Of a stretch of DNA of 20,000 nucleotides, positions 233 through 20,000 are shown one piece after another. The stretch lies in assembly GCA_001724265.1 (NCBI GenBank), contig MEDY01000108.1, forward strand, positions 55,742-75,741, in the 5' to 3' direction. The DNA is from Rhizaria sp. SCN 62-66. Taxonomy: Eukaryota. The notes beneath the pieces are model-generated. The model ran no database searches. It saw only the letters and a program-made list of their open reading frames with translations, and was not told the origin of the DNA. Position numbers and translations under genes: made by a program. Every line of letters begins with the position of its first letter. Position 1 is the first letter of the stretch.

Positions 233-583
233 TCATACAGGGAGACTGCAGACTGCGATACCGGCATCAAACACAGTACCCACGGCCACCAATACCCGCT
301 CTGGGCCGGTCACCATCTCGAACGCATCCTCAAACTGCTCTGACTCGGACTTAGACTCTGTTTTTGACTGCGCCTTTGACTGCGACTGTGAGGGTAAGTG
401 CGAGTGTAAGTGCGAGCGCGAGCGCAGCCGCGGCAGTAATGGTGACGGCAATGGGACGGCGACCGACGATCCGCCGAGCTTGAGCCCTGCGGCCGCTGGC
501 TCTGGCTCCGAGAGCAACGTGATGGCCGCCTGTTTGGGCTCACCAGTCGCCGATAAGGGCACGAACGATACATGCAATGGCGC

Positions 584-636
<53 letters not shown>

Positions 637-3600
637 TTGTAATCAAACCAAACAAACACGAACGAGAAATAAAAGCAATTTAAAGAGAGAAACGCAATTA
701 AGGGAGAGAAAAAACAATTAATGGGAGTAATAACATAAAAGGCAGCAGAGGAGATGCAAAGAAAGGGGAAAAGCATTGGGAGCAATACAAAATGGGGAGA
801 AAAGCACAGGGAGAAGAAGAAGAAAGACAAAAAGCGCAGTTGTTAAATGTGAGAGTAAATGTTTGTTTGTTGTTTTTCGAGATAAGCACGCATCCATTGA
901 CATAAAGCCATGTAAAGTTATACATCGTGTGCAACAGATTGAGATGATTTTAGAGCAGCAGATGCTGATATAACAAACACACAACTCAAAGTGTCAATTA
1001 CGCTGCTCGATAGTAGTTGCAATTAGTCACCAAATATAAACGAAACGAAATAAACACGGATCAAAGTTCTCAGCTGAACCAGTATAAACAAAGCAAACAC
1101 TGTCACTCACCAAGTTTGATTAACGTAAACAAAGCTAAACAAAACCGCAACGCTAAATAAAGCGAAGCTAAGCAAAGCTAAGAGAAGTTCCGATATTCAA
1201 AGAGAGCTCGTATACTATGACATCTCTCTCTGAAGTATTAATAGTGCAGGAATGGCAGACGTACCTAGACTGGAGGGATCAGACGCAGTTGCGATAAAGC
1301 GGTGAATCAACGGATGTGACGCCACCCAAAGCCCCCTCTGCTGCCCATGGTCATTCTTCAGCTGCTCACGGTCACTCTGCTCACCACTGCGAGGATGATT
1401 GTGCACATCGAAGGGGCGGCTTACTTTACTGTCAGAAAGCCAGAGGTTATCAGCAGCACCATCAATCGCCACTGTAGCCACCGCTTTCGTCCCCACCTTG
1501 TACTCATAATACCTCACCTGCTTATTCTTATTCTTCTTCTTACCGACAGCGTCGTCCGCAGTCGCCGTGTAAGTGTCCTCAGTGTGAGTGTCATTGGTGT
1601 AAGGGTGCGCAGTGCAAGTGTAAGGGTATGCGGCTAAACTTCGGTCCTGCGTGGAAGCCACCCAGATTCGTTTCGCTGCCTTATCAATAATGACGCCATT
1701 GGGCTGAGACAGGCCCTCCACCACTAATGAGCACTCAGTACCCATGAGTGCGTTCTCCTTTTTGTTGTTGTTCTTGTTGTTATTGCGGTTACTCGTGGGT
1801 GTAGCACCCGTGAGTGAACAGAGGGCAAGGGAGCCCCAACGACGAAATGAAGCCATTTCGAACAGAGTGCCAGGGCCGTCTGCGGCAGGGGTGTTTAAGA
1901 AGTTACTATTGATGTTGTTGTTGTTGTTGTTGTTGTTGTTGAGAAAGAGGAAAAGAAGGAAACAGCGAGAGATAAAAGAATCAACAGTAAAAAGACGTGA
2001 GAGTGAGTGGGTCAAGTTAGAGGTGGTAAGATTGCGCACGTGCTCATAGCTGCACACATGCTTACGAGTTGTTTCGATGTACAAGAGCGTCATATCCACA
2101 GAAAAATAAATCGACTTATATCAACAAAACACGTGGAGTACATCGAATCATGCGTTTCTTGTGATATCACACTACAAAGCAAACATGTTTAAAGCAAACA
2201 CGTATGCATTCATCAAGCCAATCACATCAAAGCACTCACATCCAAAGCATTGACTCCGTAGCGTCTTATCAAAACATGTGTAAAAGAATTGCCTCCGTAG
2301 CATCACTTCAAAGCGTGTGAGAAACATTGACTCTGTCACAGTCGCAGTGACAGCTTCGTCAAAGCATAACCAACAACTTGCAAAGCACAAGAGTATCTTA
2401 TACAGGCGGCAACCAAAGCTTCTTGTTTTCTCCGACCGATACTTTTGAATAATTAAAGAGTCAAAACAGCACACTTATAACAACAAATAATTAGCATATA
2501 TAACATCAATAATGAAGCAAGCGTGGTAATATGTGAGTAACTAAGCAAACGTACGTCGCCACAAAGGTATCCCTATCGAGAAATGCAACCCCGTTAAGAT
2601 TCCTCAGTTGTTTGGGATGTGATTGGGCATCTGCCACTGCAACTAGCCTCAAAGCCAGAGATGGTAAAAGATCGGTTACGTTTGCACGTAGTTGGCTCAC
2701 AGTTACAACACTCTCACTCTCATCGAAGCGATGACTACCATCACCGTCGCTTTTGTTGTCACCGTCGCTGTTGCTGTTGCTGTTGTTGTTGTTGGTCTCG
2801 TTGTCCCTGTTGCTTGTCGTAGGAGTGGGAGTAATTGAAATGAGGTCAAAAACGGCCACTGCAGGCCCTTTCCGAGCCACCAAAACCACAGCAACTCGAA
2901 TGCCCCCCGCCTCCTTATTATGACTCCTTGTAGTTTCACCACCATTATCACCATCACTATTGTCGTTGCCGTCATCTTGTGATGACGGTGTTGATGATGT
3001 TGACGTTGATTCATCAGTTACTGAGAGTGTGAAACCTAAGGGTTGAAAGTCAGGCCGCGTTTCAAAGTCCCAACCCCTTAGAGGCAGTGCTCGAAACAAG
3101 CCGCCCCCCTTAGATACATCACCCTTAAACTCATTCGACGCGCCCTACTTAGACGCATCCCCCTTAGACGCAGCCAACGCGTTTGCAGCGAGCTTGTTGG
3201 CAGCTTCAATAGCAACATCGTTTGCAATTGCGACTAAAACTGCCCCTTGGTATTGTTGTTTCCCTAACATCGCCAGCCTTCCGGCCGAGGTGGAGAGATC
3301 AAGCCCTTCCCCCGCCCCCGCCATAGTAGGATCCCCTGCCTCCCTCATAGTCGCGGTGGCAACCGATTGGTCGCCGAAAGCGCGGCGATAGGGGGCGGAG
3401 GCGGCGAACAGCAGAGGACCAGCTAAGCGTAAATCCTCAGCTGCACGCATGAGGGGCGAAGAGGCGTCGATAGCGACACAGGAGGACGCTGATGATGCCG
3501 ATGCTGGTGCAAGGGCGCTGTCGATATAGGGCCGGAGAGCGACAGAGAGGAGGCAAAGTATAGCAGAGCACACGTGTTTGGTTTGCGAGAGACACAAAGT

Positions 3601-3919
3601 GAGAGGGATAAAGCGGCATGGCAATAGGACAAAAGGAAATAAACAAGTAAGGTTAATTAAGGATTAAGGAAACGCACGTATACTTGCTTACAAAACGATT
3701 GGCGCCAAGACTAGCGAGATATATGAGAAGATATGTTTCCGGGGAAAGACATCGATGACGAAGGACGGACCTGTTTTTTGTCATAAGAAGCGGTAGCCTT
3801 GCATTGTTGGGGGTGAGAGTGGTGAAAAAGTCGAGAGCTGCAAGGTAGTTATATATGCCATAGGCGAGCGCGAGCGCTAGGAACGCTGATACAGAAGCAC
3901 AACGACTCTTGAGAATCAT
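233..3919 (-). CDS. Paraoxonase/arylesterase (PON-family, Ca2+-dependent six-bladed beta-propeller) protein, ~700 aa. Four exons: 3919-3771, 3517-2555, 1905-1265, 582-233. Contains an in-frame TAG at 3147-3145.
   Basis: Exons joined by hand at GT-AG sites keep phase (2,2,1) and total 2103 nt = 701 codons. The product has an N-terminal hydrophobic segment (VSAFLALALAYGIYNYL) and PON motifs in the correct order: AAEDLRL (PON1 GSEDLEI), DFQPLGF (FNPHGI), LRNLNGVAF..FVAT|N (SVNDIVAV..FYATN), LFEMASFRRWGS, SQPNGVII (FANGINI), GAADNLWL (LVDNISV), WVASHP (WVGCHP), VGTVFDAGIAVCSLPV* (IGTVFHKALYCEL*). Ends in TGA at 233-235. An upstream in-frame ATG at 3997 is also possible. Confidence 0.88.
583..1264 (-). 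other. Intron 3 of the PON-like gene (682 nt, phase 1)
   Basis: Donor AG|GTACGT, acceptor (AAC)n-AG|CG; frame joins DPSSL-A-PLHVSFVP. Confidence 0.8.
584..635. repeat. (GTT/AAC)~17 microsatellite immediately 5' of the intron 3 acceptor
   Basis: Perfect trinucleotide run read directly from the sequence. Confidence 0.95.
1906..2554 (-). other. Intron 2 of the PON-like gene (649 nt, phase 2)
   Basis: Donor AC|GTACGT, acceptor (CAA)n-ATCAATAG|T; splicing rebuilds the conserved FVATN motif. Confidence 0.85.
1913..1941. repeat. (GTT/AAC)~9 microsatellite just 5' of the intron 2 acceptor
   Basis: Perfect trinucleotide run read directly from the sequence. Confidence 0.9.
3145..3147 (-). other. In-frame TAG within exon 2 of the PON-like gene (candidate sense/recoded codon)
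   Basis: ORFs 3145..3624 and 2506..3099 are in the same frame and separated only by this TAG plus 15 open codons (ASKGDASK*GASNEFKGDVSKGGGLFRALPL). Confidence 0.8.
3518..3770 (-). other. Intron 1 of the PON-like gene (253 nt, phase 2)
   Basis: Donor AG|GTCCGT, pyrimidine-rich 3' part, acceptor GACAG|C; reading frame preserved (..KN-S-ALAPAS..). Confidence 0.7.
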
Positions 3920-4286
3920 CGTCCCAGTCGACTTTGCTATGGGTCGGTGGCAGCAAACGGGGGAGTCGGAGGTGTGAGAGCTCGAGGATATGATCATAGA
4001 TCGGGAAATTAATAACCATCCGAACTTTAACGCGCTGTTTAAAACATTAATCTTTAATTATATTCCTTGAAGTTCCGTTTTCACGCTAGGGGATATCTTT
4101 TCGTTAACACTCGCAGCCTTGCCCGGAGCAGCGCGACGAGAGCGACCTAAGTTTGAATTCCTTCCTTCATTTTTCTTCCGCTCACATCTTTCTGGCTTTA
4201 AACAACCACACCTTTGCATTTTTATACTTCTTAAAACCACTCGCACGTGTTTTTAGGGTCGTCTAGATCTTTCGCAGAGCTTGCGA
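3920..4286. promoter_or_regulatory. Short head-to-head intergenic region (likely shared/bidirectional promoter plus 5' UTRs)
   Basis: About 370 bp between the divergent inferred start codons at 3919 (-) and 4287 (+); more AT-rich than the exons. Function is inferred from position only. Confidence 0.5.
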
Positions 4287-7200
4287 ATGCGTCCCTCAGG
4301 CTCAGGCTCAGGCTCTGTCAGTGGCAGCGGTGGCAGTGGCATTCCTATTGCTCCCCCTCCTACTCCTCTCCCGTACGCTCTATCACTTTTTAACAACATT
4401 TATACCAACTTACACCATTATTTTGTGTTATCTCCTGATCATTTGGCTTAGCCACAACGTATTATCTCTTTGAAACCCTGTTTCGTCAACCACAATCATC
4501 CCTCATCGTTTTCGTTTCTCCTATCTTTACTCTTTGATACCTTCCTCCCTTTTAGCCCCGCTGCATTGCTCTCCAAGCTCCGCGCAATTCCGGCCGTTTC
4601 GCAAGCGTCCCTTACCCCTCAAGCCGTTACCGACCTCAAATGGGGGTTTGTCGAGCCTACCTTAGCTGCTTTAGCAAGGGCTTCTGGATCAACAGCTATT
4701 GATGATCTAGTTGAATCACGTCGTAAAGAAAGGGCGTTTGAACGGGCATCTCCTCTGGGACCGAACAAAGCGCGCGAGGCGGCGTATCAGGTACGCGTAC
4801 TTCCATGTATACTAATTAGATTCGCACTGTTACTGCACTTACATTCAAACACTCGCTTGAGATTGAGAAGTCTTGATCTGATTTGCAGATGTGATGCTTG
4901 TAGACTATACTTTGCTTTGGCTTGATGAGTCGCTACGATATTCGCTATATATATGAGTTATTTACTCACAAAATGCAGTTTTCCTTCAAGATTGATTCAT
5001 ATTCGCTCACATCTTTGCTGTTTCATTCTTGCTTCTCTTGTTTGGTTCATGTTGTTCACGACTACCATTTACCTTGCGTTTACATATTGCATATATCTGT
5101 CGACACTTTGTGCTGTCACTCTATCTTTTCGCTTTGTATATGTGTCTTAGGCGGCTTGTCTTAAAACAGCGGCTAATATTGCATCTGTTTCCTTACCCGC
5201 CCCCTCACAGTCACAAGCTGTTATAAGCCGCCTTTCTCAAAACTCTCATAACTCTCAAAACTCAGCCTCTAATGCTGCTGCTGCTGCTGCTGGTTTGACT
5301 GGTGACAAAGGGGGGGTTTCAGTTTCAGTTGTTGCTGTTGAGAAAGTGACTGTAGCATCGGTTTTGACTGCTTTGGCCGCAAAGGCGGCTTATGTTTCGA
5401 CAGCGACTGAGAGTATGCCTGGCCAGGGCGTTTCCACCAAACAACAACAACAACAACAACAACGCTTGCAACAACAACAACAACAACAACAGCAACAGCA
5501 ACATCAGCAGCAGCAACAGTCTCAAATGCAGTCACAACTGAAATCTCCACCTCAACCTCAGCCTCAGCCTCAGCAGCAGCCTCAGCAGCAGCCTCAGCAG
5601 CAGCAACAGCAACAGCAACAGATTACAGAGTTGCAGCAGCGTTTGTCGCAATTGCAAGCTATGGTTGCTCACCAACATCAACCTCAGTCTTTACAACAAC
5701 AACAACAACTACAACAACAACAGCAGCAGCAATTACAACAGCATCAGCATTTGCAGCAGCAGCAACAGCAACAACAAAGGGGTATGATTGCAACACCTAG
5801 CCGTTTTTCAGCAAGGCCACAGTCACCTATCATCACCCCTGCCTTTGCCGCTGCCCCTTTTGCCACATCTGACCCTCATGCAGAGTCTATTTCTCATCAA
5901 TCTCAGTCTGCGAATGCGCAGGGGCGGGGGCCTGGTGCCAGAGTAGAGAGACGGGGGCCTGCGGGTTTAACAACGGCACAGCTGCAGCGGCCACAATCAG
6001 GTCGTGGCCTAGTAAATACTGTTAACAATAATAACACTATCAACAACATCAACAATATCAGTCCTAGTAACGCTACGAATAACAGCATTGTCAATCCTAG
6101 GAGTACGAATCACAATAGTATCGTTTACTCTGATTCTTCGAATGCCGGCTCTGCGAGTGCTGCTTTCACTGCTAATGCCAACGCTGTTTCTTCCTCCTCC
6201 AACGCGACTGCAACTGGGGCTGCCACGGTGACTGATGTTTTCAGCACAGGCCTCGGCCGCCGCCGACCTGCCCCCGCTACTATGGCGGGGGCGGGGGGCG
6301 CTATGGCGGGAGCGGGGGGGTCGTCGTCATCGTCGATGTTGTTGGAGAAGGGAAAAGTAGGGGCTACGCTGGCAGCTTTGGCTGGAGGGCCTGATGTTGA
6401 CGATGATGACAACGGTCACGCTGCGCAAAAACAGCAACAACAACAAAAACAGCAGCAGCAGCAACAACAACAACAGCAGTTTCAACAATAGCAGCAGCAG
6501 CGGCGGCCTCAGCAGCCTCGATGGCATCATCCTGATGACGACCACGACGACGATAATGATGGCCGCTTTAACGCCGATAACGATGACGTCAACGGTCGTT
6601 TCCGTTACCACAGCGCCACTGAGCCCGAGCCGGAGCCAGAGGCTGAGGCTGAGTTTGAGAATGGAGCTGTGACGGAGGCTGGAGCAGGAGCTGCTTTGAG
6701 TAATCACAATTCCCGTGTCAATACTAAAAAAACACCCCTTCCTGGCTCTAGCTCAAACTCAAAATCTAAACCCAGCAGCAGCAGCAGTAGCGGCGGCGGC
6801 GGCGGCAGCGGCGGCGGCGACAAAGGGGGTGATGCTGGTAGTAATAACGGTAGTTTGATGGCTACTTTACGCCGGGCTCAGGCCCGAGCTTCAGCTGAAT
6901 CCTCTCGGGCTGAGAAGGCTGAACGCATTGCCGCCGCCGCACAACGGGAGATAGCTTTATTACGACAACAGCTCGAAAGGTCCGAGGCTGCTTCCGCCGC
7001 CGCTGCCGCCGCCGCCGAACTTGTTGCTGAAACGGCTGAGGCTGCTGAAGCCGAGGCTGCTGAGGCGACGAAAGCAGCAACTGCAGTCGCGGCGGCGTCA
7101 GCGGGGGCGGGGGCGACTCATGCAGCCTCTCTCTCTCACGCTGCTGCCGTTGGCTATAACAATAATAATAACTCTAGCAATGGCACTGCTACTGGGAGTG

Positions 7201-10200
7201 GTTCTACTGCGTCTGGCTATGATCGTGGCAGCCCTCTCCCTATGCCTCCGCGCAATCGTACTCGCACTAGCAACATCAGTAATAATTACAGCAACAGCAA
7301 CAGCAACTCAACTGCTGCTGCTACTACTAATCCTGCTACTGCTGCTTCTCATCCCACTGCTGCTTCGAATGTATCAACAGCGGCAGCGGCGGCGGCGGCG
7401 GCGGCGGCGGCAACTCGATGTGCTTCCTTAGCACCTAACGCCAATAGTTGCCCCCACTGTCCCTTGTCATTACTTGCCGCGTTAGATGCCGTAGCCCTTG
7501 CAGCCGGCGCCACAGCCGCTTTGACTGGGCTCCATCAAGATGCTGAATCTATGCTCGCGTCGGCAAGCGCTCACAGTCAAAGCCACGGCGGTGGCGGCGG
7601 TGGGAGTAATCTTTCTACGGCAGTGCCAGTGGTTGCAGTCAGGGCATTAGCAAGCTCTCTAGCTGCTGCTAAGGCTGCCACTGCTGAAGGGGTCTTGGCG
7701 TTACGCTCCCGCATTGGCTGCGGCGGCAGTGGTCAGAGCCACCACAACAACAACGGTTACGGTGATAGTAATAATGATGGTGATTATGGTGTTGGCGGCA
7801 ATAGTAGCGATGGTGTCTTTGCTTCAGCTCCTTTCCGTAGCCGCTATTCAAACTCATCTCACAACTCCTCAGTTTCTCCTCATACTGTCACACTCGTGGC
7901 GGGCAACGGTGTGTCGATGACTCTCGAAGCACAGCCCTTCATGGCTGTCCCTTCCGCACATGTAAGTGCACATGAAAATGTAAGTGTGGGTCCTACAACA
8001 CCTGCTGCGAATGTGAGTGCGAGTGTAAGTGCGAGTAATACACTTGCTGCGTCTGCTTCCCTCGCAGCCTCAACAGGTCTTTCATTCCTTCACGTCTCAA
8101 CTCCTACAACAACAGCAGCAGCGGCGGCGGCGGCGGCGGCGGCGGCGGCCGCAGAGTGCGGCTTAACTTCCTGCGCCGGGGCTGACCCAGCCTCCGTCCG
8201 CCGCCTCTTAACCGCCGCCGCTACCATGGCGGGGGCGGGGGGCGGTGTAATAGCGGCGGTGGCGGCGGTGGCGAAGACTGTGACTATACCTGGAGGAGCT
8301 TTGCAATCGTGGGCTGAGGCTGAAGCTGCTGCTGAAGCTAGTTATCTATTCCCCTCTCGCCCACAGCCGGAATCGCACGTACACTCGCAATCTCAGTCAA
8401 ACGCGCAGAGGTTGCCTAGTTTAGTGTTGACGCGTGCTTCCTTATCCACACTTGCTGCTTCGCTGCAGAGGTTACAAACGGCTTTATCAGCACACGCACC
8501 GTTACTCGCAGCCGCCTCTGCCGCCGCACCCTTAGGCGCTGCCTTAGGGCTGTTGAGCCACGACGCCCGGGCGCTCGCTAATGCTGACGCGTCTTCTAAC
8601 TCGAATGCGAGCGCGAGAAAGCGCGGGTTAGGCGGGTCGCAACAACGAAGCGGCGGTTTTGCCAGCGGGCAACGGCAGTCAGCTACTACTACTGCGCGGA
8701 ATAGCAGTAGCAAGAGTGGCGGCAGCCAGAACAACAACAGCAACAATCGACCTAAATGGTCCCACGTCGCCGCTAATAATAACAGCAAGAACAACGCGTT
8801 TGACGAAGATGACGGCTATGACAACAACCACTACGACGATGTCAATAGCGATGATGCTTATGATGCAGACTCTGATTCTGACGCTGATGCTCGTCCCAGC
8901 GGCAGCTCTGCGGCGGCGGCGGCGGCGTTATCTGGTCTTTCCCCGTTTTTATGTCTCGCCGCCTCGTCCTACTCTGATAGTAGTAGTAATTCTAACAGTG
9001 GTGGTGGTTTTGGGAGTGATGATGGTTCAACTGTCGCCGCCCCAGGTTTGCCTGATCTCATCACTGCAGTCGCTGCCGCTCAAAGCGCAATCGCATCGGT
9101 CGCCCCTTTGCTTACAACACCATTAACCCCCGCCACCCTCTCTGCCCTCGGTAGTAACTCACCACTCTCAAAAATGGCAACATCAACACCAACAACAAAT
9201 GCGACTAAAACAAACTCAAATGCGGTCAAAACAGTTCCGAACGCAACGAAACGCTCTGCAGCCGCCGCTGCTGCCGCTTCTGCAAATAGCAATGCTGCCA
9301 ATCGGGCCAACACTATGTTTCGGTTCAACTTTGGCGGCGAGTCACCTGCTGTTTTGCGTGGCTTAGCAGTGTTGGGGGCGCATTCAATCGCCCCTCCTGC
9401 CGCGGCCGCGGCGGCAGCGAACGCAGCCGCCTCCACACTCGCCAAAAGGGCCTTTAACGCTGATGCCGCTACTGCTGCTTCTGCTACTGCTGCTGCTGTT
9501 GGGAGTAGTGGTTTAAATGTCGCCAGTGCTTTAGATGCTGATTTACTCCGCGGGGACTCGAGGCTCGCCCTCTCAGCCCTCCGGGCCACAGCTTTGCTAG
9601 CGGCTGAACAACACGCTCTCGCCCGCCGTGCTAATGCAGCTGCAGCTTCTTCTAACCGAGGTACCACTGGTGTTTATAAGACTGTTGGTAATGATTACGA
9701 TGATGATGATTCGGTTAAGTTCGACAGGGACGCAGATATTGAGGCAGCGTTGGCGGCTTCCGCAGACCCAACTACTGTGACCGATTACCGTAACCGTTTT
9801 GCTATTCCTTCTGTCTCATGCTTCTTTAACAACAACAATAACAACAACAGCAATAGCAACAATAATGGCAACAGTGGTAATAATGAGAATATGAGGTGGT
9901 TACCGCTACTATTACAAGGTCTCGGCCAATCAACAGCAGCAGCAGCAACAACAGCAAATGCATCAACCTGTGCGACTACTGCTGCTGGGGGAGCAGGTGC
10001 CGTCACGGACTCCCTTTTAGCCCTTGCTGTCGACCACGCAACCTCCACCCTTTCCCCTGATAACACTCTCAGCAACAACTCCTCCCACTCTGACCTAAGC
10101 CCGAGTAGTAATCACGCTCATGCCAGCGCTAGGGCACTGTTAGCTGTCTTGTTGTCCCTGCGCAATAGTTTAGCCGCCGAGCGTTCCGCCGCCCGCACCT

Positions 10201-12782
10201 TAACCCACGCGTTACTCCTCGAGCGCGGCTTCCTGCGCCGGGCACTCCACGCACACACTCGAGCTCTGGCTCCGCTTTTGACCCGTGTCGACGCTGTCTC
10301 GGCAGCGTTTGCGGCCGCGGCGGGCGGGGCGTATAGGCAGCTTGATGCGCTGCTGAGGGAGGGGCTGGCTCCTGGTGTAAGGGTTGATGCCGGACCCTTA
10401 GTTGACGGCCTTGGCGGAAACAGCAGTAATAACGGATCAATAGGCTCTGGCGCTGGCGCTGGCGCTGGTAATGTTGGTGTAAGTGCTAATGTAAGTGCTT
10501 CGCGTTTGACAGTGCCATCGTCACAGTTCGCTCTCTCAACTCTCGCCGCTACAGTGCCACACTTGCTACCACTGCTTAAAGGAGCAGCACGTGCCTTAGG
10601 GTGCCGCCCAGTCACTCGCCCTCATAGCAGTAGTATTATTGCGCAGCCACCGGTGGCATTGGGATATTACGCCGGTTTCGCACCGCCGCCGTCGCCGCCG
10701 TCGCCCTCCTCCGTTGCTGATGCTATTGTCAAGACCGCATTGGTTTCAGATGCTGCGTCAGCGTCAAATGCAGCATTTTCTGCTGATTCAGCGGCAGCAG
10801 CATCGGCGGCGGCGGCGGCGGCGTCAGAAGCAGCGGTTGCAGAGGCGGTTCGAACTGGAACATTGTTGCCGTGTCACTATTCGCTGTCGCTGGCGCGGTG
10901 GAGGTCGGCTGTCGCCGGGTCAGTGGCGGCTTATATTCGCGCTTTGAGTAGTCTCGACGCATCGTCACTGCAACCCACTTCCTCTCATCACCCCACTCAC
11001 CCTGGTATTCACAACGCGTACGCTGCTGCTGCGGGTCCACGCTGGAGTCCGTATGGCTGGGGCGATCTCTGCGCTGTTTTGGGAGCTGTGGCGCGCTCTA
11101 AAGCCAAAGTAAGGGCTCGTAGCAATCGCAATAACAACATCAACAACAACAATATCAGTACCAGTGGCGGCAGTAAAGCTAAGGTGACGGTCAAGATAGG
11201 TGTTGGAGCGAGCGCGATTGTAACCAAACCTGCTGCTGCTGCTGCTGCTGCGGCAGGGAGTAGGACTCAGACTAAGGCTACCACAACATCATCAGCAGCA
11301 GCAACAACAACAGCAGCAGCAGCAGCGGCAGCAGAAGTTAAAACAGCGGTTTCACGGACAGTCTCTGGCCGGGGAGATGTGCTTGGCGACAACGCCAGTG
11401 ATGTGAGTGCTGCTGCTGGCTCTGCTGCTGATGCAGTTGCAGTTAAGAATGCGACTGTGACGGAAGAAAGTGAACTTGAGTCGGAGTTAGAGTCAGATTT
11501 GGATGTTGATATGGACACTGGACTTACCGATGACGCGGTTGACGCTGATGACAACAACAACAGCAACAGCAATGATGATGACGACGATAATGACGAAGAT
11601 AATGCTGATTCTGATGGCTATGACGATGACGACGACGAAGGTGATGACAGTGTCAACGACGATACGACCAACGATACTACTGCTAATTACGATGACGACG
11701 ACGACGGCGACGCTGATCGTAACAATAGTTACAGCGCTGCCGTTGGAAACAACCACAACAACGAAGACGATGACGTCAACGTCAGTCGTGGCGGCAGCAC
11801 CGGCGGCGGCGGCGACGACGACGAGTCAGTGCCAGGGCCAGCGCCAGTGTCAGAGTATGTGCCAGTCAAAGTGCCAGAGTCTGCGCTCGAGTCTGTGTCA
11901 GTGCCAGTCAAAGTGCCAGTGTCAGTACCGGTGAGGGCGTTGACTAAGCGCGTGCATTTCGATGCTAGTGTCTATCAAAACAGTTCCGGTTTCGACGACA
12001 GCGGCGATGGCTACGACAGCAACCAGGGTTATCTCAGCAACGGCGGCGGCGGCAGCAGCAGCAGCAACAGCAACGCTGCCGCCGTTGCAGCGGCAGCCGC
12101 CTCTCGACAGCAACAGCAGCAGCAGCCTCAGCCTCAGACGAGGGCTCGATGGGCGGTTCCTCCTGCTGCCGCTGCTGCTGCTGCCACAAACCGTCAGGAA
12201 CACTCAGGCATGAGTACCGGCGACTTAAGTACCTCCGGTGTAAGTACCGGTGGCGCAGTGAGGCCGGCGTGGATTGATCATCTCAGTGACTGGGGACCTG
12301 CCCACAGTCATTTAGCTGCTGCTCACGGTCACTCCGCTACTGCTGCTCACGCTCAGTCGGCTGCTCACGGTCACGCACAGTGGCTTGATGAAGAAAGCGC
12401 TGACGACGATAATACTGGTGACAACAACAACAGCAGTAGTGGCGATAACAGCGGCCGTTCCGCACTCGCTCCCGCCCATGCCCCTGCGACTGCCGCTGCT
12501 GCTGCTCATGCTGCTGCTTTTCTGCCTGTGTCGAGGACCGCGACCGCTGCTCCGACTGCGGCTGCTGCTAGGACTGCAACCGTTACAAGGACTGCGAATG
12601 CAGCTGCGGCTGGGAATGCAACTGCGACGAAGAACGCTGCTGCTGCTGCTCCTGCGGCTGCGAGCGCGGCTGCTGTTGTGCCTGTCGGCGCGCTAACAAG
12701 TGGCACTGGTTCAATAGCGTCGACGACGGCGATGTTGAGTGAAATGCAGCGGCTGCAAGATATGCTAGATCGATTCCAGTAA
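4287..12782 (+). CDS. Very large (~2650 aa) low-complexity protein of unknown function with poly-Q/A/N/D/G tracts and probable coiled-coil segments. Three exons: 4287-4372, 4556-4790, 5151-12782 (alternative acceptor at 5211). Contains an in-frame TAG at 6489-6491.
   Basis: ATG at 4287 (MRPSGSGSGS..), donors GTACGC at 4373 and 4791, acceptors TTTAG|4556 and CTTAG|5151, all phase-compatible (2,0). ORFs 5295..6491 and 6669..12782 share a frame and the 59 codons between them are open. Heptad-like stretches include LRRAQARASAESSRAEKAERIAAAAQREIALLRQQLERSE and the C-terminal MLSEMQRLQDMLDRFQ. Ends in TAA. No family recognised. Confidence 0.8.
4373..4555 (+). other. Intron 1 of the large gene (183 nt, phase 2)
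   Basis: CC|GTACGC ... long polypyrimidine tract ... TTTAG|C; frame preserved. Confidence 0.75.
4791..5150 (+). other. Intron 2 of the large gene (360 nt, phase 0; alternative acceptor CACAG at 5210 is also in frame)
   Basis: CAG|GTACGC donor, AT-rich interior, pyrimidine-rich 3' end, acceptor TCTTAG|GCG. Confidence 0.7.
5441..5777 (+). repeat. CAA/CAG poly-glutamine and QP-repeat region (coding)
   Basis: Several runs of CAA/CAG and CCTCAG units in the reading frame of the large gene. Confidence 0.9.
6489..6491 (+). other. In-frame TAG inside a poly-Gln run of the large gene (candidate sense/recoded codon)
   Basis: CAG CAG TTT CAA CAA TAG CAG CAG CAG CGG; the frame stays open for more than 2000 further codons. 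Confidence 0.8.
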
Positions 12783-12784
12783 CT

Positions 12785-13092
12785 CGCATCACGTCGGTTA
12801 AATGGGATCAACATCTGCAGTGCAATTTGCGATGTTAGATCGACTCTAGTGAGCCCGCATCACGCCACGTCAAAGCAAGCGATATGATATCGGCGACACT
12901 GCAGTGTAATACGCAGTAGTCACGATCACACGACGTCAGGGCATATCAACGACACTGCAGTGCATTGTGCAGCGAACTTATACACGCATTACAGTCCCGA
13001 TGTCTGCGGTGTCGTATCGACGACTGCAGTGCAGTGTGACATCAAGCACTACTATGCAGTGCAATGCGGAGTCAAGGACTGCAGTGCACTGC
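12785..13092. repeat. Degenerate tandem repeat built around a (CGACA)CTGCAGTG core in the convergent 3' intergenic region
   Basis: CTGCAGTG at 12815, 12899, 12955, 13024 and 13079, plus TGCAGTG at 13055; three copies are preceded by TATC-RR-CGAC. Confidence 0.7.
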
Positions 13093-13319
13093 GACATGTT
13101 CGACCAGAGGTTCTAGTTAACAATGCTATTGCATGCATTCATAACAAAACTGATTCTTTAGTAAAATTATGTTTTATTTAGCTTAATCAACGTATACATA
13201 TCAACAATAAACAAATTACCTTTTCATAACTCAAAAATTGCTCGAAATATGAACATAAAGCGGCGAAGATTGCAGCTCAGTAAACATCGGTAAACATATT
13301 ACGTCATCGTCATGGTCAG

Positions 13320-15514
13320 TCACTTCAACTCGTCGCGATTTGCGCAAATATCCCCGACAATCGGCGTGAGACAGCGGTACAACTCCATCGCTTGCTCATA
13401 CCCTTGCCCCGTCACCATCCCATCCAACAGCAACTGCGACAACGCCTGCCGTCCGCCTGCAGCGAAAAACGCCGCAATGTACTCATTCCTCGCCGCGCTG
13501 CGCGGGGAGGTGGTGGTGGCGGGGACCTCCCATAGCAAAGGGTCGGGGAAGATGTCGCCGAGCTGGATCATAATTCGCACAGTGTCTAAAACGCGGTTCA
13601 GCGTCCTACCTGAAGGGGCGATCCCAGCTTCGGCAGCAGCGGCAAGAGTACGTGCGCAGTATTGCATTGCGCCAGACTCTAACATAGTATGAGCAACTTG
13701 GGTAACGAGACTGGGAGGGGTATTTCGCCCGCTGCCGCCACGACCACCACCGCCGCCACCGCCGTCAGTCATCGCTGCCGCGGCAGTCGCCGCCACCGCG
13801 GCTTCACTTAAAGCGACATCAGTCCCAGTCGCAGTCGCAGTGGTTGACACGGCTTCACTTAAAGTAGCCGATGCGGATTCACTTTGATTAACCGCAGCGG
13901 CTTCACTTAACGCGCTGTATAGCACCCACGACATTTCATACGCCACTCCCCACTTCGGACTGGCGATATCCCTCACAGGTACCGGCACCCGCGGTAACAA
14001 CACCTGCAGTACACGTGACTGCAGCACCACGCGTGCCACCATCACAGGTCCGTCGCTGATAAGATTACCCAATAACCATGCCAATTCTTTCCATTGAACA
14101 AAGACATCTGCGCTAATGCGCCTTTCTCCTTCCCCGCCGCCGCCTCCGCCGCCGCCTCCGCCACCGCCTCCGCCGCCGCCGCCTCCGCCCAGCCCCAGAG
14201 GCAGCGGCCCCAGAGGCCCGGGAGCCTCTATCTCTATAGCAGCAGCAAGATGGGTCAAATGCGCCAGTACATCCAGGGTGAAAATGCGTGTCACGAATGC
14301 GCTGTTAAGCATCGCCGCGTTGCCAAGTAGCCTGAGCGCGGGTAGCCGTAACATCCGTAGCCTGGAGCTGTTCAGAGATGACTGCTGAGACTGAGACTGG
14401 AGGGATGAGAGGACAAGCTGGAGCAACTCGCTCCCCATCCCCTCACTATGGGGGGACGAGAAGTCCCCCGCCTTGTGACTATGAGAGTCACCCGCCTCTT
14501 CACTATAGGAAGGGAGGAGGAGGCGCTGGAAACACGCGAGTGCGCTCGGCGCGCTAAAAACAAACGAGAGCGCGTTTAAAGTCTCAGAAAGTATACTGAT
14601 ATCATCATAATCACTTTCGCTATCATTATCATCGTCGTTATTGCCATTATTGGCAAGAGCACGTGCGTGATCGGAGTTGTACTGGTCAGAGTTAGAACCC
14701 CCATTGCGGCCATTGACGTCAGTAGCAGCAGTATCAGCATTGCCAGCAGCAGCACCGATAGCGGCATTATAATCGTCGTTGTCAGTGTCGTTCATAAGGA
14801 GACTGCGGCGGCTGCTGTGGCTGCAGCCACGGTTTTGACTGGTGGTGGTGGTGATGGTGATGATATTGAGGCTGAAACAGAGTCTGTGCAGAGCCAAAAG
14901 AAGCGGCCTAACATATTGCTCAGTCACAATGAATGGTAATGGCGGTTTTACGGCAAGACACGCGTTTACGGTCTCTATCAGAGCCTTTCGCACTGGGGCA
15001 AAACCAGTCGTAGCAGGAATGTGAGTTAGCCCTGCCTCTCCATAACCAAGACGATTGCTATAAAGCTGAAGCTGAGGCAGAAGATAGCTATTATTTGGAT
15101 TATTAATACTATTGCTATGATTGTGGTGAGCTCCTCGAGTGACACAAGTTCCTTCGTTGGAGTGATAGTGGCCGATACAGTTACGGTCGTTACTGCTACT
15201 GCTGCTGTTGTTGTTGTTGTTGTTGTTGTCATAACCGTATATTTGCAGGGTACACCGGCACAAGTGGGTGACGACTCCAGTGTTAATGAGCGTGCTGACA
15301 GCGGCTCGGGAGCCGCTACGTGCGAGGTTACCTATGATCACAAGTGCCAGATCAGCTGTTGTCGCATCGAATATCGGCGGTGAAGCAACCGTTACTGCAT
15401 TTACTGCTTTCACGGTCACAGTCGTAGGCACTCCAACCGCAGTGACAGCGGCAGTCGCATCGGTGGCAACAACATCAGCAGCATCAGGTGTCTCAGAAGG
15501 AGTAGGATCATCAA

Positions 15515-15546
<32 letters not shown>

Positions 15547-16025
15547 TTGTTCAAGGAGGGAAGTGGCAGAAAACGGGAACATAGTTTCTCAGGAATCTTG
15601 CACTTAAACAGTGCAATTGACCCCACGTGTGTTTCGGCGAGGTTCGCGAAGAAGACGAGAATATGCCTTTTCCACGCACAGTCGATTTGATTGTTGATTG
15701 TGACAGAGTTCAGCAGCCAGTCAAACACGTGATATTCTTCGCATAGGTTGATACCGGTCCAGAGATCGCTGTCAAGGAGAGTCTTTAACCGAACGAACGC
15801 CGTTGCTGCCGCCGCCGCCGTTGCAGCCGCCGCTGCTGCTGCTGTTGCTGTTGCTGTTGCTGGGGCGGTAGCGGCGGCGGCAGCAGTGGTGGCGGCGGTG
15901 GCGGTGGCAGTTGAGACAGGTGCGGCTGTGGTGACTGTGGCAGCGACAGAAGCAGCTGACAGAGAAGTTAGGTCGGCTAAGATGTTGTGAAACTCAACAT
16001 AAAACTGATCATCTTCCCGCAACAT
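13320..16025 (-). CDS. Divergent importin-alpha-like armadillo (ARM) repeat protein, 901 aa, with low-complexity insertions
   Basis: Long uninterrupted ORF with ARM helix-3-like motifs: LVFFANLA, ALVIIGNLA, CLAVKPPLPF, ILSETLNALSFV, LPALRLLGNA, KELAWLLGNL, YEMSWVLYSA. No basic IBB domain visible. Ends in TGA. The 5' end may be preceded by an intron acceptor (CCTTAG at 16037-16032). Confidence 0.7.
14132..14190 (-). repeat. Poly-glycine (GGC/GGA) coding repeat, ~20 Gly
   Basis: Read directly in the ARM ORF. Confidence 0.9.
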
Positions 16026-16804: not shown

Positions 16805-18091
16805 TCACATCTGCGCGCACTGCGGGCCCGCACCGCCGTGGCCGCGGCCGTGCGCGTGCGCCAGCTCCTCCTCCTGCGCCTGGATGGCGGCCTCATCCTC
16901 CTCCTGCTGCTCCTGCAGCCGCTTGGCGACGGCGGCGGAGAACTGGCCCGCCTCGACCACCTCTGGATCGACGCCCGCAGGCAGCTCGGGCGCGGGCGCG
17001 GGCGCGGGCAGCAGCGGCCTCAGCGCGGCGAGCAGCGCGGGGGACACGTCACGCGGCATGCGCACCCGCAGCTTGATGTAGAGGTCGCCGCGGTGCGCCG
17101 GGTCGCCGACCTTGGGCATGCCCTCGCCCGGCACGATGACCAGGTCGCCGGTGTTGGCCGCGGCGTTGGCGGGCGAGACGACGGTAACGAGGCGCCCGTC
17201 GTAGTGCTCGAATGTGTAGGTCCAGCCGCCGAGCGCCTCGATGAGCTCGATCTCGCGCTCCAGCAGCAGGTTTGTCACGCTGTCGCCCATAAGCGAGAAC
17301 ATCGGACGCAGCGGCGATGGTGGCGTCTTGCGTTTGCGCGCGCGGACCTCATCCGACTCGAGCGTGAGCGTGACGATCACGTCGCCGGGCTCCACGTCGG
17401 GCGCCTCGTCAGCCTCGCCGGGGAAGACGATTTGCTGGCCCGCACGCATGCCGCGCGTGACCACGACCTCGATCTCCTTGGTCACAGGAACCGTCTTGGT
17501 GCCCTTGCAGCCCGTGCACGCGTCTTCGGGGCGCAGCACGGAGCCCGTGCCGCGGCAGCCGTCGCAGGGCCCGACGAACTGCTGCACCATGTTGCCCTGG
17601 CGGATCATGCGCATGCTCTGGCCAGAGCCGCGGCACTTGCCGCAGGTCGCGTCGACGCCGGGTTTCGTGGTGCCCTTGCCCGCGCAGTCCACGCACACGC
17701 GCTTGCGCGAGATCTTCAGCCGCGCTGTCTTGCCGTTGTACAGGTCCTCCAGCCCGACCGAGAGGGAGAAGGGCACGTTCTGCGTGCGCTGTGGCCCGCG
17801 GCGGCCGCCGCCGAAGCCGAAGAAGCCGCCGGCGCCGGCGTCGGGGTTGCCGCCCGCCTCGAGCCCCTCCTGGCCGTACTCGTCGTAGATCTTGCGCTTC
17901 TTGGCGTCCGTCAGCACCTCGTAGGCGTTGTTGATCTCCTTGAACGTCTGCTCCGCCGTCGGGTCGCCCGGGTTGCGGTCTGGGTGCGTGCGGATCGCGG
18001 CGCGCTTGAACGCCTTGCGGATTTCGTCATCGGACGCCGTGGGAGCAACGCCCAGGAGGTCATAAAGCTTGGTGTCTTTCGCTGCAGGCAT
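16805..18091 (-). CDS. DNAJA: Type I DnaJ/Hsp40 co-chaperone (DNAJA/Ydj1 family), 428 aa, intronless, C-terminal CaaX prenylation box
   Basis: N-terminal J-domain (DTKLYDLLGV..HPD..FKEINNAYEVL), G/F-rich linker, LEDLYNGKT motif, four CxxCxGxG-type zinc-finger repeats (CVDCAGKG, CGKCRGSG, CDGCRGTG, CTGCKGTK), C-terminal domain (GEGMP..GDLYI), ends PQCAQM* (TGA). Confidence 0.97.
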   Translation of the reverse strand: MPAAKDTKLYDLLGVAPTASDDEIRKAFKRAAIRTHPDRNPGDPTAEQTFKEINNAYEVLTDAKKRKIYDEYGQEGLEAGGNPDAGAGGFFGFGGGRRGPQRTQNVPFSLSVGLEDLYNGKTARLKISRKRVCVDCAGKGTTKPGVDATCGKCRGSGQSMRMIRQGNMVQQFVGPCDGCRGTGSVLRPEDACTGCKGTKTVPVTKEIEVVVTRGMRAGQQIVFPGEADEAPDVEPGDVIVTLTLESDEVRARKRKTPPSPLRPMFSLMGDSVTNLLLEREIELIEALGGWTYTFEHYDGRLVTVVSPANAAANTGDLVIVPGEGMPKVGDPAHRGDLYIKLRVRMPRDVSPALLAALRPLLPAPAPAPELPAGVDPEVVEAGQFSAAVAKRLQEQQEEDEAAIQAQEEELAHAHGRGHGGAGPQCAQM

Positions 18092-18861: not shown

Positions 18862-19068
18862 GCCGCTCCGGTGCTGGAGCACCACGCGGCCTTCAACAAG
18901 ATGCTGGTGCTGCCCACGGAGGACACGCTGGTGCAGCTCGCCGTGATGGCCAAGGCGCACCTCGCGCCCCTCATCTCGGCCAAGATCCTCGCAAAGGAGA
19001 AGGGGCCCATGAAGCCGCCCAAGATGCCTCGCAAGAAGGTTGTCGCGCCGCCCGAGGAGGTGTTCTAA
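18862..19068 (+). CDS. Probable terminal coding exon (68 aa) of an unidentified gene; upstream exons not found
   Basis: Abrupt switch to strongly G/C-ending codons like those of the DnaJ gene, right after a T-rich tract and CAG acceptor (18859-18861). Reads AAPVLEHHAAFNKMLVLPTEDTLVQLAVMAKAHLAPLISAKILAKEKGPMKPPKMPRKKVVAPPEEVF* (TAA), followed by a T-rich 3' UTR-like region. Confidence 0.6.
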   Translation, partial: AAPVLEHHAAFNKMLVLPTEDTLVQLAVMAKAHLAPLISAKILAKEKGPMKPPKMPRKKVVAPPEEVF

Positions 19069-19787: not shown

Positions 19788-20000
19788 ATGAAGCACTTGC
19801 TTGTCGGTGGCGCCGGCGCGGTGGGCGTAACGTACGCGCTTGCACTACACCGTGCGGGCCATTCCGTTGGCATTTATGTGCGTCCCAAGCGCCACGCGGA
19901 GTACCACGCAGCTGCCAAGGCCAAGATTGAGGGGAGCAAGAACAGCGGTAACATTGTGACCGACACCCAGCCCGTGTTGACGGCTTACGATGTCACACCT
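19788..20000 (+). CDS. 5' end of a ketopantoate reductase (PanE/ApbA)-like NAD(P)-binding Rossmann-fold protein, truncated by the window edge
   Basis: Not in the ORF track. GCC-ATG start, then MKHLLVGGAGAVGVTYALALHRAGHSVGIYVRPKRH..., matching the GAGAVG..Y...L..AGH.V...VR pattern of PanE/ApbA N-termini; 71 open codons to the window end. Confidence 0.75.
   Translation, partial: MKHLLVGGAGAVGVTYALALHRAGHSVGIYVRPKRHAEYHAAAKAKIEGSKNSGNIVTDTQPVLTAYDVTP

Follow-up and report, generated by a model that had tools for sequence, protein, structure and literature searches.

In-frame UAG codons in two adjacent genes of an uncultured eukaryote: a possible early or weak reassignment of UAG to sense

Genetic codes that separate UAG from UAA are described from few eukaryotic lineages and, going by the sections of the two reports drawn on here, each of the lineages that we compare already makes wide use of the new sense codon, so that the early steps of its reassignment are not seen in them. 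In the rhizarian exLh code UAG specifies leucine (Leu) while UAA and UGA are stops, and the sections of the report on this lineage give 384 in-frame UAG codons in 71 genes, with Leu at 82 of 86 hyperconserved UAG positions (PMC5304391). The corresponding sections on Iotanema spirale describe a code in which UAG specifies glutamine (Gln) and UAA and UGA are again stops, with 204 UAG codons in 126 genes, Gln at 22 of 28 hyperconserved positions and zero UAG terminators in 730 contigs (PMC5304391). For the phyllopharyngean ciliates, which read UAG as Leu or Gln, the part of the study concerned reports an internal UAG in 78-91% of genes and suppressor transfer RNAs (tRNAs) in two of the genomes (PMC11687900). 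Here we analyze a stretch of 20,000 nucleotides (nt) assigned to Rhizaria sp. SCN 62-66 (contig MEDY01000108.1 of assembly GCA_001724265.1, positions 55,742 to 75,741; hereinafter the window, positions being counted from its first letter), in which two adjacent genes, one coding for a putative paraoxonase/arylesterase-like beta-propeller protein and the other for a giant low-complexity protein, contain one in-frame TAG codon each. The window is a piece of a metagenomic contig from an uncultured eukaryote, with GT-AG introns and A+T-rich intergenic DNA, and holds six genes, of which four are complete and two partial.

The paraoxonase-like gene occupies 233..3919 on the minus strand (exons 3919-3684, 3517-2555, 1905-1265 and 582-233; terminal TGA at 233-235), and its TAG (3145..3147) is codon 203 of 730 in the context TCT AAG TAG GGC, at the point where the open frame 3663..3145 continues into 3144..2506. 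The giant gene occupies 4287..12782 on the plus strand (exons 4287-4372, 4556-4790 and 5151-12782; terminal TAA at 12780-12782), and its TAG (6489..6491), codon 554 of 2651 in the context CAA CAA TAG CAG CAG, joins the frame 5151..6491 (446 codons) to 6492..12782 (2096 codons). Each spliced model, of 730 codons and of 2651 codons (2650 amino acids) respectively, has GT-AG introns with matching phases and a TAG as its one internal stop, and the two together are free of frameshifts and of internal TAA or TGA over 3,379 codons despite abundant trinucleotide repeats. A first-pass annotation of this DNA, made from the sequence alone, had claimed one in-frame TAG in each of these genes together with intact splice phases and an absence of frameshifts; the positions and frames agree with ours and the spliced models bear out the rest. 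In the giant exon the reading frame contains no TAA, one TAG and no TGA, whereas 79 and 209 stops occur in the two remaining sense frames. The 446 codons upstream of its TAG are without a stop in frame, where the other frames have 13 and 24 (chance ~6e-9), and the 122 codons from the TAG to the next ATG are open as well; the giant gene is one coding unit and not two genes. Both TAGs are genuine in-frame codons within intact, recently functional genes, and as cases of in-frame UAG in a conserved coding region we count the minus-strand site (3147-3145) as firm and the plus-strand site (6489-6491) as probable.

All five gene ends visible in the window were re-checked: TGA is used at 233, 13320 and 16805 and TAA at 12780 and 19064-19066, with TAG at none of the five, as previously claimed. 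Internal TAA and TGA are likewise absent from the 4,708 sense codons of the four complete genes, a count that, with the two partial genes beside it, accords with the roughly 4,800 codons of the first-pass annotation. Over these ~4,700-4,850 codons TAG occurs twice (~0.4 per 1000), in two of the six genes. The type I DnaJ/Hsp40 gene (16805..18091, minus strand; 428 amino acids), with ~70% G+C and strong codon bias, has no TAG, again as first noted. Its product ends in CAQM directly before TGA (16805-16820), and in its nearest relative among 5.8 billion proteins (metagenomic and 62% identical, all others being at most 42% identical) CAQA precedes TGA (positions 1420-1434 of a 1,643-bp contig, L001), TGA being the single gene end of that contig and TAG thus ending none of one. 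Both endings look like the CaaX box at which type I DnaJ proteins are prenylated at their C-terminus. Since CAQM and CAQA sit just before TGA, UGA is a true terminator in this lineage, and UAA and UGA still terminate.

We propose, with a probability of roughly 0.4, that UAG is translated in this organism as an early or weak reassignment, with Gln as the best guess for the residue, and regard this as the single most likely reading. In a fuller version, which we put forward more tentatively, UAG would have been lost as a terminator and would be just starting to reappear within genes at ~0.4 per 1000 codons, probably as Gln, with UAA and UGA left to terminate. Mechanistically, ribosomes would translate UAG rather than stop at it while UAA and UGA terminate, eRF1 would recognize UAG poorly or not at all, and a tRNA with the anticodon CUA, or a near-cognate tRNA, would insert an amino acid at UAG. 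Gln would be the likeliest residue because one of the two TAGs lies in a poly-Gln run and differs from CAG by a single transition. The very low frequency of TAG and its absence from the strongly biased DnaJ gene suggest an early or weak reassignment rather than an old neutral synonym. Both the decoding of UAG and the identity of the residue are what we infer. In favor of a code change, two of the four complete genes, out of six in the window, have a single lesion apiece; each lesion is a TAG, neither gene is otherwise damaged, and TAG ends no gene in view.

Set beside the codes introduced above, and as far as the sections cited there extend, the window resembles exLh in having UAG alone in frame and only UAA or UGA at true gene ends; furthermore, UAG is rarest in highly expressed genes in exLh, and the biased DnaJ gene has none here. 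Unlike exLh, the window offers only two UAGs in ~4,700 codons, neither at a conserved position. The likeness to Iotanema spirale lies in 'occasional' in-frame UAG, in UAA and UGA terminators and in Gln, which is the best guess here too, whereas our sample is limited to six genes and UAG usage is clearly lower. With the phyllopharyngean ciliates the window shares a possible UAG-only change detected in metagenome-assembled DNA of an uncultured eukaryote, UAA and UGA being kept as stops, but it differs from them in its ~50% G+C, in model introns of 166-682 nt and in TGA as the commonest stop.

We then examined the surroundings of the minus-strand TAG. The exon, queried with the TAG read as X against 1.84 billion representative proteins, gave three matches, two of which are the window's own open reading frame (ORF) pieces, one ending at the TAG (...GDASK) and the other starting after it. 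The third (P0127) is a single uninterrupted ORF of 227 amino acids from another metagenome that aligns on both sides of the TAG (BLASTP E 2e-24), with the conserved segment EDLxLAGxLLFAxSxPYRR on the 5' side and ALPLxGWD..PDFxPLG, AVFDL, LLPxLALR and RNLNxxxFLD..xSTYV on the 3' side. The TAG residue itself falls in a variable, repeat-like linker of ASKG-like units, where P0127 is gapped and unalignable. Judging from this alignment, the minus-strand TAG is within a conserved coding exon. Conserved propeller motifs, which presumably resemble those of paraoxonase (PON1) up to the C-terminus, go on through the later exons, so that a protein ending at codon 203 would be without most of the folded domain. 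In Pfam, the next exon matches Arylesterase (PF01731; E 0.0052, 17.4 bits against a cut-off of 21.3) and SGL (PF08450; E 0.014) below the cut-off in both cases; matches of the protein in the PDB are confined to designed propeller blades, and an ESM Atlas search with P0127 returned only low-scoring, unrelated entries. No read-through form of this ORF occurs among the 1.84 billion representatives.

With the conserved ALPL motif 17 codons downstream, an intron removing this TAG would need its 3' end ahead of that motif. Twelve in-frame GT..AG pairs satisfy this, and all were rejected: their 5' sites (GTTTTA, GTCGCA, GTTGCT) bear little resemblance to the GTA[AC]G[CT] found at introns of the window, and each lacks a pyrimidine tract. 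As a separate observation on this gene, two of its introns, placed by phase, end (1906-1960 and 583-640) in a long (CAA)n run and then the first AG, past a pyrimidine tract; the modelled ends, ...CATCAATAG and ...CAACAACAG, would constitute an unusual 3' splice-site region.

The letters at the minus-strand TAG could be followed across samples. A contig from another study (X4, of 2025, ten years later) covers 2807-3963 with zero differences and the TAG unchanged. No run has another letter there, and no alternative contig was detected at 3145-3147 in X4, while other places in the window do show alternative contigs. Three contigs from two sources represent the upstream ORF piece, all three ending at ...GDASK, among them the form P0128, which differs only at its intron-derived start. 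Because an independent sample carries it unchanged, assembly error is ruled out for the minus-strand TAG. Near-identical sequence is present in bioreactor, wastewater and activated-sludge runs from 2015-2025, and populations from separate studies over these years (X2-X4) differ from the window at few sites, mostly clustered at 18.9-19.9 kb (the tables for X2 and X3 are practically the same; we treated the two as a single data set, which may have been filed twice). Such near-clonal populations point to a cosmopolitan, near-clonal organism.

The same near-clonality sustains a competing explanation that we regard as nearly as likely as the translation of UAG, namely that the standard code applies and the TAGs are young nonsense alleles, one premature stop per gene, fixed in a near-clonal cosmopolitan population and leaving truncated proteins or dead genes. 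Premature-stop alleles and young pseudogenes in natural populations can show a single nonsense codon in an otherwise intact frame, and what we see is just that, one nonsense codon per intact frame, common to a near-clonal population; with so few differences over 20 kb among the populations of 2015-2025, all of them would share a single recent mutation. What such alleles would not lead one to expect is that two adjacent genes are affected, that both lesions are TAG with no other, and that no TAG terminator is in view at any of the five gene ends. Independent single hits would be needed in two of the four complete genes (six in all), with no frameshift, TAA or TGA having arisen in 3,379 codons rich in trinucleotide repeats, and no intact allele appears at 3147-3145 in data that do show alternative contigs elsewhere. 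On the other hand, both genes are plausibly dispensable, one coding for an accessory hydrolase-like propeller and the other for a giant low-complexity protein without a known family. Furthermore, CAG to TAG is a single transition, the giant gene has 79 CAG codons, and a random nonsense change would produce TAG 37-45% of the time, making it the most or second-most likely outcome. The very low frequency of TAG also suits rare lesions better than a working sense codon. Of the features that mark pseudogenes, further lesions are absent from both gene models and a segregating intact allele was not seen at 3145-3147 in X4; a very young lesion would show neither.

The plus-strand TAG lies in a different setting, namely inside a poly-Gln run of CAA and CAG codons in a protein rich in A, Q, S, N, G and D. 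No run has a differing letter at 6489-6491, and depth in that bin is normal. Two word-index searches for homologs or strain variants of the giant gene around the TAG were without a match, their candidate lists being saturated by low-complexity words, and an exact look-up of 10 candidate ORF forms around it found none on record. A GT..AG pair at 6357-6491 (135 nt, a multiple of three, GTAGGG...AATAG) ends exactly at this TAG, which invites an explanation by mixed causes: the plus-strand TAG would belong to an unrecognized in-frame intron such as this one, or be a consensus error in a repeat, and the minus-strand TAG would be a pseudogene lesion. The two phase-placed introns of the neighboring gene that end in (CAA)n...AG offer some precedent, as ...CATCAATAG resembles ...TTTCAACAATAG at 6491, and among the independent contigs listed none spans 6489, a point that also tells against UAG as sense. 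The 6357-6491 segment, however, is open in frame, and its composition is like that of coding sequence, whereas introns in the window are rich in A+T and in stops; a pyrimidine tract is missing from it, and many AGs precede the one at its 3' end. As for a consensus error, no differing letter was reported at 6489-6491, and the absence of frameshifts in the 2,650 codons of the source assembly points to an accurate consensus. We consider mixed causes unlikely.

Less probable still is a gene-specific programmed readthrough, in which the code would be standard and UAG leaky at both sites. The plus-strand context CAA UAG CAG, where positions -1 and -2 are both A and a C stands at +4 with CAG after it, resembles a leaky context, and the readthrough motif of yeast and tobamoviruses is UAG-CAR-YYA; but the plus-strand site is without the YYA part and the minus-strand AAG UAG GGC does not match. 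The first-pass annotation had likewise held that the two contexts differ, and it is in this absence of a common context, together with the absence of downstream structure (RNA folding 3' of the TAGs is no better than that of shuffled sequences, z -0.10 and -0.29), that the case against programmed readthrough lies. Moreover, the minus-strand TAG lies within a folded domain, and a product ending there would serve no purpose.

In a polyA metatranscriptome (X6), depth is 0 in the bin 2669-3335 and 0.55 in the bin 6004-6670, and none of the listed contigs covers either TAG. Contigs of this data set at 3546-3844 and 4297-4720 follow the genome without a break across two predicted introns and could stem from intron retention, nascent RNA or DNA carry-over; clean RNA depth is highest over the DnaJ gene.

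Returning to the translation of UAG as our preferred reading, a number of observations speak against it. Given the codons present, mutation alone would make both internal stops TAG with p ~0.14-0.20. In standard-code ciliates, according to the part of the study that treats them, TAG ends 10-30% of genes (PMC11687900); at such frequencies, zero TAG terminators among five gene ends has p ~0.17-0.59. CAG outnumbers TAG by 95 to 2 in all, whatever TAG encodes, although Leu codons starting with T and with C are about equally common in the genes with little codon bias (TTG 59 : CTG 45). A long-established neutral synonym of CAG would be expected about as often as CAG itself, so TAG cannot be one; usage this low would mean that a reassignment is recent or that the codon is poorly decoded. 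Instead of widespread sense use we find two TAGs in ~4,700 codons and in two of six genes, a rate of ~0.4 per 1000 codons that compares with 1.6-5.4 UAG per gene, or an internal UAG in 78-91% of genes, in the sections on the published lineages. Both TAGs occupy variable or low-complexity columns, so neither names an amino acid, and scans of the window for tRNAs and Rfam families detected no tRNA gene or other known RNA gene. The sharing of the TAG among near-identical populations rules out assembly error, yet it is also compatible with one recent mutation. The proposal of the first-pass annotation that UAG is decoded at very low usage is accordingly upheld in part: the TAGs are real, in frame and within intact genes, but the statistics of the window are weak and the usage is far below that of the published lineages.

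Were UAG indeed translated, the organism would represent a new lineage with a known kind of code (UAG sense, UAA and UGA stop), unusual for its very low usage, and a naturally occurring intermediate on the codon-capture or ambiguous-intermediate route to a changed code. At such a natural early stage one could ask in which order the loss of TAG terminators and the changes in eRF1 and tRNA take place. It would also carry a practical warning, as standard gene callers split genes at TAG, and the database entries P0125 and P0126 show such splits. Two young nonsense alleles, on the other hand, would be an ordinary finding.

The DnaJ protein also provides information on the placement of the organism. 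Its best match with a name is 39% identical, and in a tree of 33 chosen sequences it groups with the 62% identical relative and one more metagenomic sequence in a clade that no named lineage joins. Going by these affinities, the lineage is an unsampled one, in which a code change may have gone unnoticed. A metagenome scan with the DnaJ alignment listed at least 80 loci, among them the contig of the relative, the sequence of which was read. Searches of genome contigs with P0003 and with a 24-nt motif, and of viral contigs with the same motif, P0003 and P0127, yielded no match. Two classes of codon usage are apparent in the window: the intron-less DnaJ gene with its ~70% G+C uses CAG 17 : CAA 1 and CTG 19 : TTG 0, while the low-complexity genes use both members of codon pairs about equally.

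Among the remaining genes, a single-exon gene of 901 amino acids and no known family lies at 13320..16025 on the minus strand, with a terminal TGA and zero internal stops. The last exon of a small G+C-rich gene (18862..19066, plus strand; the exon start is approximate) ends in TAA at 19064-19066, and the 5' part of a further gene (19788..20000, plus strand) begins MKHLLVGGAGAVG... and runs off the window. The DnaJ gene is the only one in the window with a Pfam match above the cut-off, and no Pfam family was found for the giant gene or the 901-amino-acid gene.

A general search of the window for repeats gave mostly trinucleotide-repeat noise, and Tandem Repeats Finder reported no array in 12700-13200. 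The intergenic DNA between two convergent gene ends contains five plus-strand copies of ACTGCAGTGCA (at most one mismatch) over 12814-13088, spaced 55-84 nt apart; in all, six matches to ACTGCAGTGCA occur, including one on the minus strand, versus 0.94 expected. Short GTAAGTGCGAG-like repeats within coding sequence at 374-428, 8005-8035 and 10471-10501 resemble 5' splice sites (family D19). The 16-mer ATGGCGGGGGCGGGGG occurs in four copies (three exact, one with one mismatch; 0.01 expected), at 3309-3324 (minus strand) and at 6282-6297, 6303-6318 and 8226-8241 (plus strand). Every copy reads in frame along the coding strand (..T-M-A-G-A-G..), the four being divided between two unrelated genes and having ~30 nt in common, and ATGGCGGGGGCGGGGG and a CCCCCGC just 5' of it make up a strong hairpin (z -2.73 and -2.64).

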